Source: a virus (Duplodnaviria > Caudoviricetes). From it: a DNA stretch of 64,000 nt. Numbering within the stretch: position 1 is the first letter of the stretch; every line of letters starts with the position of its first letter. This document shows positions 29,110 through 36,264 of the stretch, one piece after another. Where the stretch lies: IMG/VR virus record IMGVR_UViG_3300021091_000011; one strand, written 5' to 3'. The position numbers and the translations under genes are program-made. The notes under the pieces are model-generated. The model did no database searches, was not told where the DNA came from, and worked only from the letters and a program-made list of their open reading frames with translations.

Positions 29110-29763
29110 ATGCCTAGCAACACCGTTAGACTGATTCTCGGCGATAGCCTAGTCAAACTCAAAGACCTAGCGCCAAACTCAGTAGACGCCGTAGTTTCAG
29201 ACCCACCCTATGAATTAACCGCTAACAAAAAAGGCGGCTCAGGGGTTGCCAGCATCAATCTTGAAAGTCCATACGGACGTTCACGGATCGGAACGGGCAA
29301 CGGCGGCGGCTTTATGGGTATGAAATGGGATTCGACCGGAATCGCCTTTTCACCCGAACTTTGGGGCGAATGCTTTAGGATTCTAAAACCTAACGGCGTT
29401 ATCAAAGCCTTTTCAGGCACGAGAACTTTTCACCGAATGACCCAAGCCCTGAAAAAATCAGGATTCGTAGACTTTGAAATTCACGCTTGGACTTACGGCT
29501 CAGGCTTCCCGAAGTCTATGGACGTGAGCAAGCAGATCGACAAGGCGGCGGGCGCGGAGCGGGAAGTGGTGGGGCGTGTGGCAGGCATGGGTAAGCAAAA
29601 CCCTGAATGGAACGGCACCGCACAAGGACGCGCTGAAAACTCGTTCAAGTCGGAATATGATGCAACCGCACCCGCCACCGATGCCGCTCGGCAATGGTCC
29701 GGGTGGGGCACCGCTCTAAAGCCCGCTTGGGAACCAATCATCGTCGCAAGAAAGCCAATATGA
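29110..29763 (+). CDS. Beta-class DNA MTase N-terminal (catalytic DPPY) polypeptide lacking motif I
   Basis: VVSDPPY, GFMGMKWD, YGSGFPKS and GWGTALKPAWEPIIVARKPI*. Confidence 0.85.
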   Translation: MPSNTVRLILGDSLVKLKDLAPNSVDAVVSDPPYELTANKKGGSGVASINLESPYGRSRIGTGNGGGFMGMKWDSTGIAFSPELWGECFRILKPNGVIKAFSGTRTFHRMTQALKKSGFVDFEIHAWTYGSGFPKSMDVSKQIDKAAGAEREVVGRVAGMGKQNPEWNGTAQGRAENSFKSEYDATAPATDAARQWSGWGTALKPAWEPIIVARKPI

Positions 29764-29846
29764 TCATCCACGTCTTGAGAAAGCCGTTGTCAGACACGGT
29801 CGCTCAAAACGCCTTGGCTCATGGAGCCGGAGCAAGGTGCCATTGA
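29760..29846 (+). pseudogene. Truncated MTase middle-segment gene
   Basis: MIIHVLRKPLSDTVAQNALAHGAGA matches 31280, then breaks at about 29834. Confidence 0.8.
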
Positions 29847-30339
29847 ATTCTAAAGCCGCCCCCATTTCAGGCAGGAAATAGTCTAGTACGGTCCCATAGC
29901 GACCATTTGGCCCCCGTAGATAATACTGATGTACGCAGGGCACACCTAGACGTTGAAGCACATCACCAACTTTCATTTCTAAGCCCGAGACGCGGGGTAT
30001 ACGGCCTTCCGCAATCGCCAAAGAAGTTGTCTGAGATAACTTGGCCTTGGTTTCTTCCGTGTGCTGATAGTTGCCCGCCGCCTTTCGGCGAACATTCATC
30101 TCACGTCGACGTTCGGCCTGCGCTTGTCGGGTAGCCTCTGGAATGATATAGGGCGTTTCTACTTTCCGACCTACCAAGCCCATCGAGCGAGCCTGATAGG
30201 AGCATTTGCGGGAGCATAAAAACGCCGTGGTCTTCGACCGAGCCACCACCGAAGGTGGTCTGGTTACAGGAGTGCCGCAAACTCCACAAGATTTTGCGAT
30301 TGAGAGGGTGTTGCTCTGCCCCACAGGGCGTGAGAGCAT
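29835..30339 (-). pseudogene. Truncated homing-endonuclease-like gene (Zn finger + NUMOD3-like + Vsr/DUF559-like)
   Basis: CGVCG..LCSRKC; HTEETKAKLS; SGLEMKV..Q..LDYFLPE..ALEFNG, then lost before the expected His motif. Confidence 0.7.
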
Positions 30340-30480
30340 TTACGAGAACAAGTCGTCTGCCGCCCATGTAATAAGCGGGTAGGGTCTGCTTGGTATAGGT
30401 CCCCGCAAACGGGGCAAAGTCGTTCAATCACGAGGTCACCACCTATGACAAATGAGGGAAACGGTCGTAGGGAGGGTCAG

Positions 30481-31283
30481 ATGATTCGCTTGGTTTTAGG
30501 GGACTGCATCGAGAAAATGCAGGATATCCCCCCAGGAACCATTGATGCGATCATCAGCGACCCTCCCTACGGCTGAATATATCAGGACTAGAATTCATGG
30601 GGAAAGAATGGGACGCACCTTGGAAGTCAAACGGATGGCAAGCCGGAGGCGGGTTCTCTAAACCTGGTATTGGCGAACGCCATACCGCATGGCCTAGTTT
30701 CACCGCGACTTCTAAGTTCGGTGCCACAAATCCAACTTGTGAGACTTGTGGGGGACGTGCGCGAGGTAAAAAACGCTGCGGTTGCGCTGAACCACAATGG
30801 AAAGCCATCGGCAAACGCCGCCACGTCGAAAATGAAGGCTTACCGTCTGACGTTACGAGTTCAGGGATGAGTAATCACCTTCGCCACTTTCAAGATTGGT
30901 GCGAACTTTGGTCAAGCCAATGCTTTAGAATCCTAAAACCTAACGGCGTTATCAAAGCCTTTTCGGGGACACGAACTTTTCACCGTATGACCCAAGCCCT
31001 GAAAAAATCAGGATTCGTAGACTTTGAAATTCACGCTTGGACTTACGGATCAGGCTTCCCGAAGTCTATGGACGTGAGCAAGCAGATCGACAAGCAAGCG
31101 GGCGCAGAACGAACGGAAGTCATAAAGCCGTTCAATGACGAAAACGGTTGGAACGCGAACGGAACCACGGGCGACCACGCCTATACCGCACCCGCCACCG
31201 ACGCCGCCCGTCAATGGTCCGGTTACGGCACCGCTCTAAAGCCCGCTTGGGAGCCGATCATCGTCGCAAGAAAGCCAATATGA
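30481..31283 (+). CDS. Second MTase N-terminal polypeptide, interrupted by a 14-nt insert after DPPY
   Basis: MIRLVLGDC...SDPPYG* followed, in a shifted frame, by GLEFMGKEWD...ARKPI*. Confidence 0.8.
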
Positions 31284-31738
31284 TCGTTCACGTCTTACGA
31301 AAGCCATTGTCAGGCACGGTCGCTCAAAACGCTTTGGCTCATGGAGCCGGAGCATTGAACATCGACGGATGCCGGATTGCTGTTTCTAGCGAAGAAAGAA
31401 AAACCTACGACGCCAATATGCGTGCGCTTGAACGGTACGCAGACGGCAGAGAAAAAATCGGGCAGTTTGAGGGTGGCTGGAAAGCAGACCCGTCCCGTGT
31501 CAAAAACGTGGGCGCTCGCTGGCCCGCTAATCTCGTCCATGATGGAAGCGAGCACGCCCTAGATAATTTTCCCGAGGCGGGAAATGGATGGAAGAAAAAT
31601 TACGGTGATGAAGTCTATGCCGTTGAAGGCCGTCATTATTCCGGAGGTTCTTTTGGCGGTGGTGGTTTTCTAGGGGGTAGCACTTATACGGACTCAGGCT
31701 CGGCATCTCGATTCTTTCAACAAGTGATAATCAAATGA
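31280..31738 (+). CDS. Free-standing MTase middle (variable/TRD-like) segment
   Basis: MIVHVLRKPLSGTVAQNAL, GALNIDGCR, RWPANLVHDGS, DSGSASRFF; ATGA overlap. Confidence 0.8.
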   Translation: MIVHVLRKPLSGTVAQNALAHGAGALNIDGCRIAVSSEERKTYDANMRALERYADGREKIGQFEGGWKADPSRVKNVGARWPANLVHDGSEHALDNFPEAGNGWKKNYGDEVYAVEGRHYSGGSFGGGGFLGGSTYTDSGSASRFFQQVIIK

Positions 31739-32163
31739 TCGTTCACGTCCTGAGAAAGCCATTGTCAGGCACCGTCGCTCAAAACGCCCTGCAACACGGC
31801 TGCGGGGCATTGAACATCGACGGATGCAGGGTTAGTTTGTCTTCCGATGAAAATCCAGACAAGTTGAGCGCGAGAAGCGGTGGGAACCGTGGTTTTGCTG
31901 AAGATTATGTAGGCGGGGTAACACGAAATTTACCTGCTGGTTGGGATTGCAGCAAGGGGCGTTGGCCCGCGAATCTCGTCCATGATGGAAGCGACGAAGT
32001 TGTAGAGACGTTTCCTGAGAGCAACCGCTGGTTCAACGCACCGAGAAATAGCGATGGAAAAGGCAAAGACGGCCAGATTTTTGATACTCACCGTGGCAGC
32101 GGGATGGGTGGCGGCGACTCCGGTTCGGCATCTCGATTCTTTCAGCAAGTAACCCTCAAATAG
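31735..32163 (+). CDS. Second free-standing MTase middle segment
   Basis: Same three constant blocks with different variable inserts. Confidence 0.8.
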   Translation: MIVHVLRKPLSGTVAQNALQHGCGALNIDGCRVSLSSDENPDKLSARSGGNRGFAEDYVGGVTRNLPAGWDCSKGRWPANLVHDGSDEVVETFPESNRWFNAPRNSDGKGKDGQIFDTHRGSGMGGGDSGSASRFFQQVTLK

Positions 32164-32987: not shown

Positions 32988-33035
32988 GCGTGTTTGCGTC
33001 GTCGAAGCCGCTTGGAATGGGTGAGGGAGATTCAC
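32814..33035 (-). pseudogene. Truncated LPxPF paralogue (first about 11 aa only)
   Basis: GTGA-coupled MNLPHPFQAAS, then unrelated sequence running antisense into the 32481 ORF. Confidence 0.6.
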
Positions 33036-33310
33036 GGGGCTTTGCTTCCGTGGCCGTAACCCTGACCGTGACCGCTGCCGTAACTGCCACCGTAGCCGTA
33101 ACCGTGGCCGCTTCCGTCGCTGAAGCAGTCACCGTAGGCGCTTCTGTGCCAACGAGAACGCTGCGGCGGCGGCGGCGACAACTCAAAGGCCGTGGTCAGC
33201 GGGACTTGAGCGAGTGCCTTACCCTTGGCGTCAATCAGACTAATCGAGCCGTCGAGATTAGGCTTGACGTCAGACGCCGCTTGAAACGGTGGTGGGAGGC
33301 TTTTGATCAT
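33032..33310 (-). CDS. LPxPF-module protein with G/Y/H/S tail
   Basis: LPPPFQAASDVKPNLDGSISLIDAKGKALAQVPLTTAFEL + GYG repeats. Confidence 0.8.
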   Translation of the reverse strand: MIKSLPPPFQAASDVKPNLDGSISLIDAKGKALAQVPLTTAFELSPPPPQRSRWHRSAYGDCFSDGSGHGYGYGGSYGSGHGQGYGHGSKAP

Positions 33311-33705
33311 CTATATACGCCGTCGATTGAGGCTATTCCCCCATGGGTTTGGATCAGTTGTCTGAGGATTTCATGCGGCACATAGGCGTAGACGGTGTCC
33401 GTCGGGTCGTCTGAGTTTTCAGCGTAGGTTTGGATCAAGTCGTCAGGTTGATTGGGGAAGCCTAACTCATAATGAGTCCACGGCCCATGGTCCTTGCGGG
33501 GTCGGCAGTAGTGCGTTGCGCTGGCCCTTACGGAGACGGAGAACCCATCTTTGCAAGTGACCCGACCTTGATATAGGCCCAAATCTAAGGCCGTGTGCAG
33601 CGCAACTTGAGCGAGCGTCTTACCCTTGGCGTCGATCAGATCGAGTGAGCCCTGAGCGTTAGGCTTGATGCTCGTCGCGTCTTGAAACGGTGGGGGCAGT
33701 TTCAC
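33307..33705 (-). CDS. LPxPF-module protein fused to a folded phage domain
   Basis: Module + DGFSVSVRAS.THYCRPR..ELGFP..TVYAYVP..HGG. Confidence 0.85.
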   Translation of the reverse strand: MKLPPPFQDATSIKPNAQGSLDLIDAKGKTLAQVALHTALDLGLYQGRVTCKDGFSVSVRASATHYCRPRKDHGPWTHYELGFPNQPDDLIQTYAENSDDPTDTVYAYVPHEILRQLIQTHGGIASIDGVYR

Positions 33706-33932
33706 GGGCTTCTCCCACCGTCACCTTCGGACTGCTCATCACCGTAACCGCGTCCGTCACCGTAGCCACGTCCGTCACCGTAACCGTGGCCGTAGTCTTT
33801 TGTGCTCAACTCAAAGGCCGTGGTCAACGGGATTCGCGCCAACGGCTTGCCCTTGGCATCGGTCAGGCTGATCGTCCCGTCGGGATTAGGCTTGAGGTTA
33901 GTCGCGGACTGAAACGGATGTGGTAGGTTCAT
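33702..33932 (-). CDS. LPxPF-module protein with GYGDGR tail
   Basis: Module + (GYGDGR)n; 4-nt overlaps at both ends. Confidence 0.85.
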   Translation of the reverse strand: MNLPHPFQSATNLKPNPDGTISLTDAKGKPLARIPLTTAFELSTKDYGHGYGDGRGYGDGRGYGDEQSEGDGGRSP

Positions 33933-34282
33933 TTGGGAACCTTGCCTCCGGAGCCGTTGCCGATTCCAAATGGGTCGTATCCGGCACCTGAGTTGCCATC
34001 AGCGAAGCGGCATTTAGCACCTAAAGCGTCGCTGTAGCCGTAGTTCAGCGAAGCGAACAAAATGCCGCCGCCGAAAGGCATGATTTCAGATATGTTGGTC
34101 TTGTCGAGTAGCGAGTAGGCCGTGTTCAACGGCACGCGGGCAATCGGGAGGTCATTTTCGGTGGTCAGGTCGATTGTCCCATCGGCGTTTACGCGAATCC
34201 AGCGCACGTCTTGAAACGGACGTGGCAACGGCGACCGACTATGTGCAGGGTAGTGGACGTTGTCTGAGATGTAACCGTTCAT
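33929..34282 (-). CDS. Diverged LPxPF-module protein
   Basis: LPRPFQDVRWIRVNADGTIDLTTENDLPIARVPLNTAYSL. Confidence 0.8.
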   Translation of the reverse strand: MNGYISDNVHYPAHSRSPLPRPFQDVRWIRVNADGTIDLTTENDLPIARVPLNTAYSLLDKTNISEIMPFGGGILFASLNYGYSDALGAKCRFADGNSGAGYDPFGIGNGSGGKVPK

Positions 34283-34605
34283 GGGGACTTGCCTTTGCCG
34301 CTTATGTAGCCTTGGCCGTAAGCGACTCCGATTCCGAATCCTTCGCCGTAGCCGATTCCGAATCCATCACCCGAACCGTCTCCGTGATCTTTGCCGTAAG
34401 TGCCGTAACCGAAATCTCCATCGCCGCTGCCATCGTTGCTTGGCTTGAAGTCGCACTCATCCTTGTCACCGAGCGGCGACAACTCAAAAGCCGTGGGCAT
34501 CGAGATTCTTGCGAGCGGCTTCCCGCTCGCGTCGATTAGGTCGATTGAGCCGTCGAGATTAGGTTTGAGACCCGTCGCGGACTGAAACGGTGGGGGCAGT
34601 TTCAC
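34279..34605 (-). CDS. LPxPF-module protein with G/D/F/Y tail
   Basis: Module + GDG/GFG/GYG repeats. Confidence 0.85.
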   Translation of the reverse strand: MKLPPPFQSATGLKPNLDGSIDLIDASGKPLARISMPTAFELSPLGDKDECDFKPSNDGSGDGDFGYGTYGKDHGDGSGDGFGIGYGEGFGIGVAYGQGYISGKGKSP

Positions 34606-34961
34606 GGGCTTCTCCCATTAGCCCTATGGGAACGCTTGCCGTAACCGTCACCGTCACCGTGACCGTCACCGTAACAACCGATACCGCGACCGTGACCGTC
34701 ACCGCGACCGTTGCCGCGACCGTCACCGTAACAACCGTAGCCGTAACCGTCACCGTAGCCGAGGCCGTAACCGTCGCTGTAGCCGAGGCCGTAACCGTGA
34801 CCGTCACCGGAACCGTAGCCTGCGGCCTCGGGACTTAGATCAAAAGCCGTGGTCAACGGGATTCGCGCCAACGGCTTGCCCTTGGCATCGGTCAGGCTAA
34901 CCGTCCCGTCGGCATTGGGCTTGATGCTAGATGCGTCTTGGAACGGATGGGGCAGTTTCAC
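34602..34961 (-). CDS. LPxPF-module protein with GYGDG tail
   Basis: AGGAGA RBS before GTG 34961; module + GYG/GDG repeats. Confidence 0.85.
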   Translation of the reverse strand: MKLPHPFQDASSIKPNADGTVSLTDAKGKPLARIPLTTAFDLSPEAAGYGSGDGHGYGLGYSDGYGLGYGDGYGYGCYGDGRGNGRGDGHGRGIGCYGDGHGDGDGYGKRSHRANGRSP

Positions 34962-34978
34962 GGAGTTCAGTCTCCTGA

Positions 34979-35455
34979 TCAATCATCAATGTCTTCGGAG
35001 ATGTCGAATGCCTCGATGATCTCGTCAGGCAGGTCTCCGTGTGAGGTCACGGTATACTGTTGGTCCTCGCCGTGCCCAAAGATTCCGGCGAAAGCCATGC
35101 CAGGTTCATAGTAGAGCCCTCTGACGTCGAAACCGAGCTTGATTAGGTGTTGGTAGAACGCGATTGGGGGCGACCAGGCCGTGAAAAACTTAGCCGTAAT
35201 CTCTCCGTGGACGGAGGCAGTCACGGAACCCTCATCTATGTCCCATTTCGTGCCCCAATTGTCACAGCACCAATCATAACTGTCCCTAGCACCGTACTTA
35301 GCGAGGTTTTGCTCGGCAGACTGACCCTCCAATTCAGGGGGGCATGGCAGGAACTCGTGGAACAGTTCGTTGCGACTTAGGGCTTTCTCGGCGCGGGTTA
35401 GTTCGTCCACGGACTCGTGCTTCAGCGTCAGGTGGTTCATACACCAATTGGGCAT
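34979..35455 (-). CDS. DUF1281/YubB-like ferredoxin-fold protein
   Basis: MPNWC, DWCCDNWGTKWD, FFTAWSPP, YYEPG. Confidence 0.8.
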   Translation of the reverse strand: MPNWCMNHLTLKHESVDELTRAEKALSRNELFHEFLPCPPELEGQSAEQNLAKYGARDSYDWCCDNWGTKWDIDEGSVTASVHGEITAKFFTAWSPPIAFYQHLIKLGFDVRGLYYEPGMAFAGIFGHGEDQQYTVTSHGDLPDEIIEAFDISEDIDD

Positions 35456-35506
35456 GGTCTAACTCTTCTTTCTATGGGCTGATCTTGGTTGTCACAAACA
35501 CTCGGG

Positions 35507-35935
35507 CTATCTGTCGAGGCCAGGTTCGAGTGGGGCAAATTCACGTTCTCCCCCCACCGTCAACGTCACCGTAACCGACACCGGAACCACCGGAACCACC
35601 GTGACAGTCGCCGTAACCGTCGCCCTTCTCCCACCGTCACCGTTGGGCAGCCCGTCACCGTAACAACCGTAGCCGTAACCGTCACCGTAGCCGAGGCCGT
35701 AACCGTAGCCGTAGCTGTCGCTGTAACCGTCGCCGTCGCCGTCGCCGGAACCGTCGCCGCAACCGTAGTCGGAACCGTAGCCGTAACCGTAGCCTGCGGC
35801 CTCGGGACTTAGCTCAAAGGCCGTGGTCAACGGGATTCGCGCCAACGGCTTGCCCTTGGCATCGGTCAGGCTAACCGTCCCGTCGGCATCGGGCTTGAGG
35901 CCCGTCGCCGCTCGAAACGGATGAGGGAGGTTTAG
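35507..35935 (-). pseudogene. LPxPF paralogue with no canonical start and a frameshifted tail
   Basis: Begins CTA-AAC-CTC overlapping the upstream TAA. The GYGDG tail switches frame near 35625. Confidence 0.7.
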
Positions 35936-36264
35936 GCGTCCCACAAGCCGGACTCCCACGCCGCCGCCGCTTGAGGCGTGCAAGCCAGCAGCCCCGTTAT
36001 GTCCGTGTATTGCGCCATAGGCGCGGGAGGCGAAATCCTCGACCCCTGCAAAGGCCCCGTGTACGCAAGGCCGACGAACCCCCGCACTTCGGCGGGCCAA
36101 TAGACCACCACTCTGCAGTCCTTGAGCGTGATGGTCGACGGGTTCTTGGTCGTGGTCCCGTCCGGACTCACGACCTCAGTAGCGAGGTTGTACGAGACAA
36201 CCTCACCGAAGAAAACGCCGCGATGGGCGGTCGTGACGACGACCTTCTGACCGACAAAGTTCAT
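35932..36264 (-). CDS. DUF6948-like (Sm/SH3-like barrel) protein
   Basis: KVVVTTAHRGVFFG...TLKDCRVVVYW...GLAYTGP. Family recalled, not searched. Confidence 0.6.
   Translation of the reverse strand: MNFVGQKVVVTTAHRGVFFGEVVSYNLATEVVSPDGTTTKNPSTITLKDCRVVVYWPAEVRGFVGLAYTGPLQGSRISPPAPMAQYTDITGLLACTPQAAAAWESGLWDA

Follow-up and report, generated by a model that had tools for sequence, protein, structure and literature searches.

Does a 14-nt insert that carries a stop codon kill the DNA methyltransferase gene that it interrupts, or can ribosomes cross it? The question arises at a site in the window (the whole 64,000-nt stretch of viral DNA analyzed here, IMG/VR record IMGVR_UViG_3300021091_000011) where, from 30559, the plus strand reads GAC CCT CCC TAC GGC TGA ATATATCA GGA CTA GAA TTC ATG. 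An initial annotation, made from the sequence alone, had described an insert with a Gly-stop...Gly layout here and raised translational bypass as one explanation. The layout is as it described, except that the motif starts 2 nt before the start that it quoted. Removing the 14 nt gives DPPYGLEFMGKEWD, the commonest form among homologous sites from 80 loci, which bears out its statement that deletion restores the family sequence; these more distant genes, all unbroken, were the only ones returned by a first protein search and by themselves would have pointed to a unique insert. Our favored reading is a short programmed translational bypass that travels with a homing-endonuclease cassette and has the insert as its coding gap. 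On the sequence evidence set out below, we give it a probability of roughly 0.6.

An interrupted methyltransferase gene

The features around the insert are as follows.

30432..30436 (+): Shine-Dalgarno-like GAGGT for the likely start ATG 30445 (duplex with the anti-Shine-Dalgarno sequence, -7.1 kcal/mol)
30445..30576 (+): ORF1, 43 codons ending DPPYG and then TGA, comprising a 12-residue extension and the methyltransferase N-terminus
30559 (+): GAC of the DPPYG motif
30571-30573 (+): putative take-off codon GGC (Gly43), from the sequence and the family pattern
30574-30576 (+): stop codon TGA
30577-30584 (+): spacer ATATATCA, 8 nt, G-free
30574..30584 (+): proposed coding gap, the stop TGA plus the 8-nt G-free spacer, from the sequence, contigs and gap composition
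30585..30587 (+): putative landing codon GGA; coding would resume at CTA 30588, restoring DPPYG-LEFMG
30585..31283 (+): ORF2, 232 open codons ending EPIIVARKPI (PF01555, PHROG 67)
30597 (+): ATG downstream of the gap

ORF2 supplies the remaining part of the catalytic module in a split beta-class amino-methyltransferase (Pfam PF01555, 2.4e-5; PHROG 67), and the two gene pieces align to adjoining stretches of PHROG 67 (positions 122-153 and 154-245). Joined, they would give a product of 274 aa containing DPPYGLEFMG. SAM-binding motif I is absent from ORF2, and the window holds no motif-I module for it; the joined product would need a partner module from outside the window. Many broken relatives have motif I in one chain with DPPY. 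Searches of the PDB returned nothing.

The gene lies in a modular stretch (29110-32163), with one related module upstream and two others downstream.

29110..29763 (+): uninterrupted paralogous catalytic module (DPPYELT...), sharing 91-93% identical DNA blocks with ORF2
31280..32163 (+): two variable modules (MIVHVLRKPL...), translationally coupled and outside the proposed hop; the first is PHROG 3008

Both catalytic modules end in EPIIVARKPI and overlap genes starting MI(I/V)HVLRKPL (29760, truncated; 31280; 31735). Elsewhere in the window, the minus strand carries two tandem intact methyltransferases of another family (451-2441; SPPYW type, with motif I) and an array of small paralogous genes that start LP(P/H)PFQ and end in Gly-Tyr-Gly-Asp repeats (33032-36100). 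Judging from its gene content and from the sequencing runs that share words with it, the window probably belongs to a large uncultured freshwater phage.

Sequencing data confirm the insert. Single contigs of three lake DNA runs, one of them possibly the source sample, span about 29805-30962 without gaps at a depth of 15-34, and therefore the insert is not an assembly error. An RNA-run contig of a 93% relative from another study also covers 30530-30680, with 11 mismatches and no alignment gap, but its depth of 2.5 makes it weak evidence and it may derive from DNA. Runs with small word shares were left out, except for RNA run X24.

Similar inserts recur in related genes

The initial annotation had named an insert unique to this genome, together with the lack of a full-length product, as what would refute bypass; homologues showed that the insert is not unique. 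Like inserts were found in 88 distinct broken loci, mostly on phage contigs, in which a methyltransferase is interrupted after DPPY-Gly by a stop and an insert of 4-24 nt, in all three frames. The full set comprises these 88 loci, with 71 distinct cassettes of 4-24 nt, and 97 intact sites. The broken loci fall into two subfamilies, an FMG type and a DPPYG-TTACKWD type. Because they share ancestry, the p-value given below overstates their independence.

Several scans contributed to this set. In the IMG/VR scan, which looked for extra bases between DPPYG and FMG and did not require a stop, a stop codon (TGA, TAA or TAG) directly followed the Gly codon in 19 of 19 disrupted genes. A second scan, for DPPYG plus a stop with no downstream condition, brought in the DPPYG-TTACKWD subfamily, and scans of metagenomes and GTDB supplied further broken loci. 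As a control, DPPY-Gly-TRA gave 32 matches compared with 7 for codons starting with A, C or T; two of the 7 were chance matches, one had an AGC take-off codon and four were genes in which TGA encodes Gly. An exact search for the window's insert in IMG/VR gave no match, the relatives differing in the spacer, and the inserts of its nearest relatives measure 14, 14, 10, 11 and 6 nt with differing stops. Most broken loci have long open downstream frames, which in the TTACKWD type are usually intact to motif I.

We rejected the idea that the insert is fixed in its clade. A tree had shown a supported clade with every Gly-type member broken, but an unbiased sample of the clade contained 4 broken, 5 intact Gly-type and 12 intact non-Gly sites, plus 1 odd site. 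A limited search of INPHARED found no cassette in cultured phages. In one relative (L295, about 400 nt upstream of 6214), TAG directly follows DPPY and LNGISFMG continues in frame; this variant is either a decayed 8-nt cassette or a recoded TAG. Six pattern matches (L178-L180, L188-L190) come from one Leptolyngbyaceae MAG and represent a multi-copy element or a binned phage; two of them, when examined, showed a 5-nt insert and lacked the helix described below.

The gap is free of G and flanked by Gly codons

Across the cassettes, G accounts for 4 of 306 spacer nucleotides compared with 93 expected, C is normal, and GG is absent from the spacer in all 71. A gap without G and GG is what would be selected for if tRNA-Gly slid to the first GG that it met. 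Landing-frame stops within the gaps occur at the chance rate (3 versus 3.2 expected), which gives no hint of decoding within the gap.

Decoding of the gap is what ordinary recoding would entail, through a -1 shift at Gly43 in the window, with DPPYGLNISGLEFM as product, and through +1 shifts or stop readthrough in relatives. The -1 frame is indeed open across the 14-nt insert, one of three features that the initial annotation had not recorded (the others, a 17-bp long-range helix and an inverted nuclease gene upstream, are described below). Lengths of the -1 type are also the commonest (32/71), intact relatives tolerate insertions at the gap site, and the 4-5-nt cases could be shifts. However, recoding would require three mechanisms within one clade, given the 6-, 10-, 11- and 14-nt inserts of the window's closest relatives. 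Stops are as frequent in the landing frame as chance predicts, L091 and L104 have a second stop, no slippery sequence is present, and both the exclusion of G and the repeated Gly codon are left unexplained. We therefore consider recoding unlikely.

The first two bases of the take-off and landing codons agree in 62/71 cassettes, and the pairs are wobble-compatible in 37/71. Among the mismatched pairs, 25/71 lie on opposite sides of the Y/R boundary, 8 have different first bases and 1 is GGG/GTT. The window's GGC/GGA belongs to those that cross the boundary; the initial annotation had rightly called this match imperfect, and the imperfection is typical of the family. The unmatched third base is the main mismatch with the classical bypass model. 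Four code-25 genes of one clade, in which TGA encodes Gly, read TGA-TAA-gap-TGA, with TGA at both take-off and landing. The repeated codon thus follows the genetic code, and the stop after take-off likewise fits the local code, being TAA where TGA is Gly. The longer FMG-type spacers (L121, L198, L204 and L235) often end in a TAYCA-like sequence that resembles Pro-Tyr codons, perhaps through duplication of the take-off region.

A long-range RNA helix covers the take-off codons

The fold of the region places the DPPYG codons in a helix with a segment near the gene start.

30462..30478 (+): 5' strand of the helix, conserved core 30465-30473 (minimum free energy fold, z = -4.55)
30559..30575 (+): 3' strand of the helix, the D-P-P-Y-G codons plus the first two stop bases (duplex test and fold)

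The two strands pair over 17 bp and cover the take-off codon. An upstream strand about 95 nt before the PPYG codons pairs with them in 53/88 broken genes compared with 2/97 intact genes (p = 5e-20), and anchoring on the five central pairs only gives 61/88 and 3/97. In an alignment chosen for the presence of the helix, the sole consensus structure from RNAalifold was a 9-bp helix. Of its cells, 95% are paired and 31 are compensatory, and 0 of 500 shuffles reached the covariation score. The upstream strand tracks synonymous changes in the Pro and Tyr codons as well as the TGA take-off. Near the core, G-U pairs outnumber A-C pairs by 50 to 3, an excess that is partly confounded by transition bias and modestly favors the mRNA strand as the one that folds. 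The consensus fold of the helix alignment contains no conserved take-off hairpin or 3' structure. The CTGA/TCAG hairpin on which the initial annotation had drawn is present in the window but is not conserved in relatives. A promoter and terminator scan found nothing.

The helix accompanies an N-terminal extension. The take-off codon is at position 43-52 in helix-bearing genes (43 in the window, 42-43 in most of its helix-bearing relatives, 44-52 in most HNH-type loci) compared with about 32 in intact and helix-less genes, which favors ATG 30445 as the start of ORF1; the alternative start, ATG 30481, is absent in relatives L244 and L207. About one-third of broken genes, including the whole 8-nt class, have neither helix nor extension. 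The two subfamilies translate the conserved part of the extension in different frames (RR versus VG), which indicates that this part is conserved as RNA, and we dropped a peptide motif as its explanation for that reason. The length of the extension may influence bypass.

Another alternative is excision of the gap, either from RNA as a micro-intron cut after GG or, rarely, by DNA deletion between GG pairs. A cut after the second base would free both third positions, as observed, the excised piece would end in G in 70/71 cassettes, and the helix end adjoins the putative cut site. Yet pieces of 4-6 nt fall below known intron size. There is no Rfam match near the gathering score in 29700-31400, and a true stop is needed under the local code (TAA in the TGA=Gly genes). 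The RNA-run contig keeps the gap, and no joint was seen at the site in contigs, which hide rare forms. We regard excision as very improbable.

The insert belongs to a mobile nuclease cassette

Upstream of ORF1 lies a gene in the opposite orientation.

29836..30431 (-): decayed homing-endonuclease-like gene with Zn-ribbon repeats, a weak NUMOD3 match and a Vsr-like nuclease domain

This gene, inverted relative to the methyltransferase, is frameshifted near 30318 and cut off after LEFNGT. It is 48% identical over 190 aa to an intact 279-aa gene in the same position in L121, which matches PHROG homing-endonuclease families (8e-12), and in a relative from RNA run X24 one extra base at 30318, seen at low depth, opens the nuclease frame. 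The term Vsr-like is a tentative label that reflects our reading of the EVNGTYWH motif together with a weak Pfam match. The nuclease GTG (30431, minus strand) and the methyltransferase ATG (30445, plus strand) are divergent and 13 nt apart, with interleaved Shine-Dalgarno-like sequences (30429-30447). The cut end of the nuclease gene joins a truncated copy of a module at 29820-29850, in what looks like a deletion or recombination scar.

Other loci have a similar arrangement. Loci of the TTACKWD type have an upstream HNH gene in the same orientation, fused in three cases to the old methyltransferase start, and the carriers appear to come from at least two unrelated nuclease families, same-strand HNH and inverted Vsr-like. 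A motif search placed a nuclease next to 17/29 and 8/17 helix-bearing loci compared with 1/88 intact loci. The cassette consists of a nuclease, a replacement gene start, DPPYG, a stop, a G-free gap and Gly-Leu-Glu codons. In L121, a 54-nt direct repeat of the gene start flanks the nuclease. The intact locus L294 is 100% identical to L121 from TTC ATG onward for about 390 nt, and the codons before that point differ. This boundary indicates that the element is mobile and carries the Gly-Leu-Glu codons after the gap, a cargo that would be pointless if translation restarted at the Met. A homing-endonuclease remnant, which the initial annotation had listed among the alternatives to bypass, is present, but as part of the explanation and not as its rival.

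An obligate link between nuclease and hop was rejected, since L256-L260 and L262 have related nucleases at methyltransferase genes without an insert. In the inverted nuclease family, the antisense frame is open for at least 300 codons (L259:1500-3400, minus strand; L121:1946-2884; L261; L262; L263). In L259 no stop interrupts the methyltransferase frame between DPPYELTSG and RGGFMGKTWD, with the whole antisense nuclease in between. The open antisense frame possibly reflects selection against polarity or another way to tolerate an insert.

Both gene pieces appear to be translated

Homing copies the cassette into intact alleles, and intact downstream frames alone are thus no proof of function. 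Because homing can refresh the downstream sequence in this way, the cassette-borne 5' exon was the part tested for selection. Its dN/dS was 0.33 in helix-bearing genes of the FMG type, 0.25 in helix-less genes and 0.10 in the TTACKWD type, alongside 0.24 and 0.07 in intact genes; a group of four gave 0.53. Broken exons are mostly nearest neighbors of one another. Over the 14 codons from landing to the next Met, pN/pS was 0.26 in broken and 0.27 in intact genes. The Shine-Dalgarno sequence before the internal ATG scored -3.2 kcal/mol in broken and -3.95 in intact genes, with -4.0 in the window and -7.8 at real starts. Together, the constrained exon, the constrained 14 codons and the unstrengthened Shine-Dalgarno sequence suggest that both pieces are translated without a second start.

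These values bear on another alternative of the initial annotation, a two-peptide enzyme in which reinitiation at ATG 30597 yields a protein that the 43-aa DPPYG peptide complements. The AGGA that it had pointed to does lie 9 nt before this ATG, and separate genes already encode the parts of this enzyme family. An in-frame TAATG overlap is seen in L244, and some in-frame start codon occurs at or near the gap in 19/88 loci. However, AGGA is not conserved in relatives, and interruption of the gene does not come with stronger predicted ribosome binding before the internal ATG. Genes of the TTACKWD type usually either have their next Met 15 codons farther on or have none, and the codons that reinitiation would skip are fully constrained. 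The Gly-Leu-Glu codons, moreover, are supplied by the cassette itself. The split is disfavored on these grounds, and we think it quite unlikely.

The same tests address the view that the insert is a selfish scar, which only guards against the nuclease and kills the gene, while homing into fresh alleles keeps downstream frames looking intact. Recent insertion into an intact allele is documented by L121 and L294, and the unbiased clade sample contains no fewer intact Gly alleles than broken ones (5 versus 4). The paralogue could cover the loss, and two cultured phages with a related HNH gene have methyltransferase fragments, or no methyltransferase, beside it. Against this, the cassette-borne exon, which always precedes the stop, is under purifying selection even in the nuclease-free class (dN/dS 0.25). 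In a dead element, one would not expect the helix to go on covarying, the stop to suit the local code, the gap to stay G-free or a landing codon to persist. We judge the scar to be an improbable explanation.

A proposed mechanism

Bypass is favored over these alternatives because the interruption recurs at 88 loci in all frames, the gaps are G-free, the code-25 genes have TGA at both ends, the helix covaries and a nuclease cassette carries the insert. It is the best-supported reading, one that the initial annotation had raised as a possibility, but on grounds other than the hairpin invoked there. The cassette anatomy, the recurrence, the helix and purifying selection on the gene start are established at the level of sequence comparison. 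The unmatched third base, the lack of a conserved hairpin, the helix-less third of broken genes, the uninterrupted paralogue upstream and the absence of a motif-I partner in the window all count against bypass.

We envisage the following course of events. A nuclease would have invaded the methyltransferase gene near the DPPY codons, and the insert would spoil the nuclease target, just as the gap in gene 60 spoils that of MobA. Translating from 30445, a ribosome would melt the helix, reach Gly43 and pause with TGA in the A site. The freed upstream strand would then re-pair with the PPYG codons as they leave the ribosome, imposing a forward bias. We infer this role for the present genes by analogy with gene 60, where it is established that upstream mRNA folds again behind the bypassing ribosome (PMC7026636). 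Peptidyl-tRNA-Gly would slide 14 nt and re-pair at the first GG (GGA 30585), about two of the three pairs being enough, and translation would resume at Leu to yield the 274-aa module with DPPYGLEFMG. The efficiency of the hop may be low. In this genome the nuclease is dead and the gap has stayed.

A broader proposal, to which we give slightly less than even odds, is that these genes form a widespread second natural class of programmed bypassing. It would be a 4-24-nt stop-hop that requires no take-off hairpin. A long-range helix that forms again on the take-off codons would drive it, and landing would take place at the first GG through two-base pairing. Nucleases of at least two unrelated families (same-strand HNH and inverted Vsr-like) would have adopted it to invade the catalytic motif of phage methyltransferases without killing the gene. 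If this is true, about 70 natural cassette variants, differing in length, stop, codon pair and genetic code, provide a series for testing what a ribosome hop needs. Homing endonucleases would then have, in addition to introns and inteins, a third harmless route into a conserved motif. Phage DNA methylation could be set at a low level by hopping. Ordinary annotation would call such genes pseudogenes or truncated.

Comparison with known systems

The natural bypass systems named in the literature surveyed are T4 gene 60 with its homologues, the yeast mitochondrial byps elements and the partly supported phiHau3 terminase. Literature searches, with subscription journals mostly outside their scope, found no published description of the present element.

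The host genes resemble other beta-class N6/N4 DNA methyltransferases (PF01555, PHROG 67) in having DPPY near the N-terminus followed by FMG-x-x-WD. They differ in that the modules are separate here, motif I for this module is absent from the window and the interruption follows DPPYG.

The codon arrangement recalls the synthetic stop-hops of E. coli (Weiss 1987, as reviewed in PMC5009743), in which matched codons flank a stop; Gly-stop-Gly is exact in L155, L163, L207 and L221. The stop-hops were laboratory constructs, unlike the natural genes described here, and the review stated in 2016 that no natural in-frame stop-hop was known (PMC5009743).

The 10-nt bypasses of the terminase of the Streptomyces phage phiHau3 share very short frame-breaking gaps and a proposed 5' stem-loop signal, and bypass there also works with a stop codon substituted. 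In contrast to the present genes, they have a rare UUA codon as trigger and a proposed regulatory function, two such genes are known, and the available portion of the report mentions no nuclease cassette (PMC10732093). The byps elements of Magnusiomyces capitatus mitochondria are, as proposed for the present cassettes, mobile inserts in many copies that bypassing makes harmless. They differ in being mitochondrial, in their length of 27-55 nt, in using an unassigned sense codon and a local hairpin, and in occupying many different genes (bioRxiv 2022.08.31.505936).

The likeness to T4 gene 60 and MobA extends to several features. In both systems the new N-terminus, about 44-46 codons long and re-creating host sequence, comes from a nuclease element (Bonocora 2011, cited in PMC7026636; Manning and Atkins, bioRxiv 10.1101/2022.08.31.505936). 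The N-terminus supplied here is analogous to that of gene 60 and unrelated in sequence. The take-off Gly directly follows a catalytic motif and precedes a stop, different nuclease families act as carriers (MobA, GIY-YIG, VSR), and the gap outlasts nuclease decay. The differences are equally clear. The gene 60 host is a topoisomerase large subunit, whereas here it is a DNA methyltransferase, and the gap is 4-24 nt instead of the 20-50 nt of the gene 60 family. There is no conserved take-off stem-loop, which has a UUCG-type tip in gene 60, and no 3' barrier. The mini-Shine-Dalgarno sequence found 5-7 nt before the gene 60 landing site is absent, the gap being G-free and mostly too short. Take-off and landing codons always match within wobble in gene 60 homologues (bioRxiv 2022.08.31.505936), whereas the third base is unmatched here; the signal that is conserved is a helix reaching across about 100 nt to the take-off codons, and the nuclease is inverted. 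The present element would thus work like the T4 gene 60/MobA cassette, but with another host gene and neither take-off hairpin nor mini-Shine-Dalgarno sequence it is not a member of that family.
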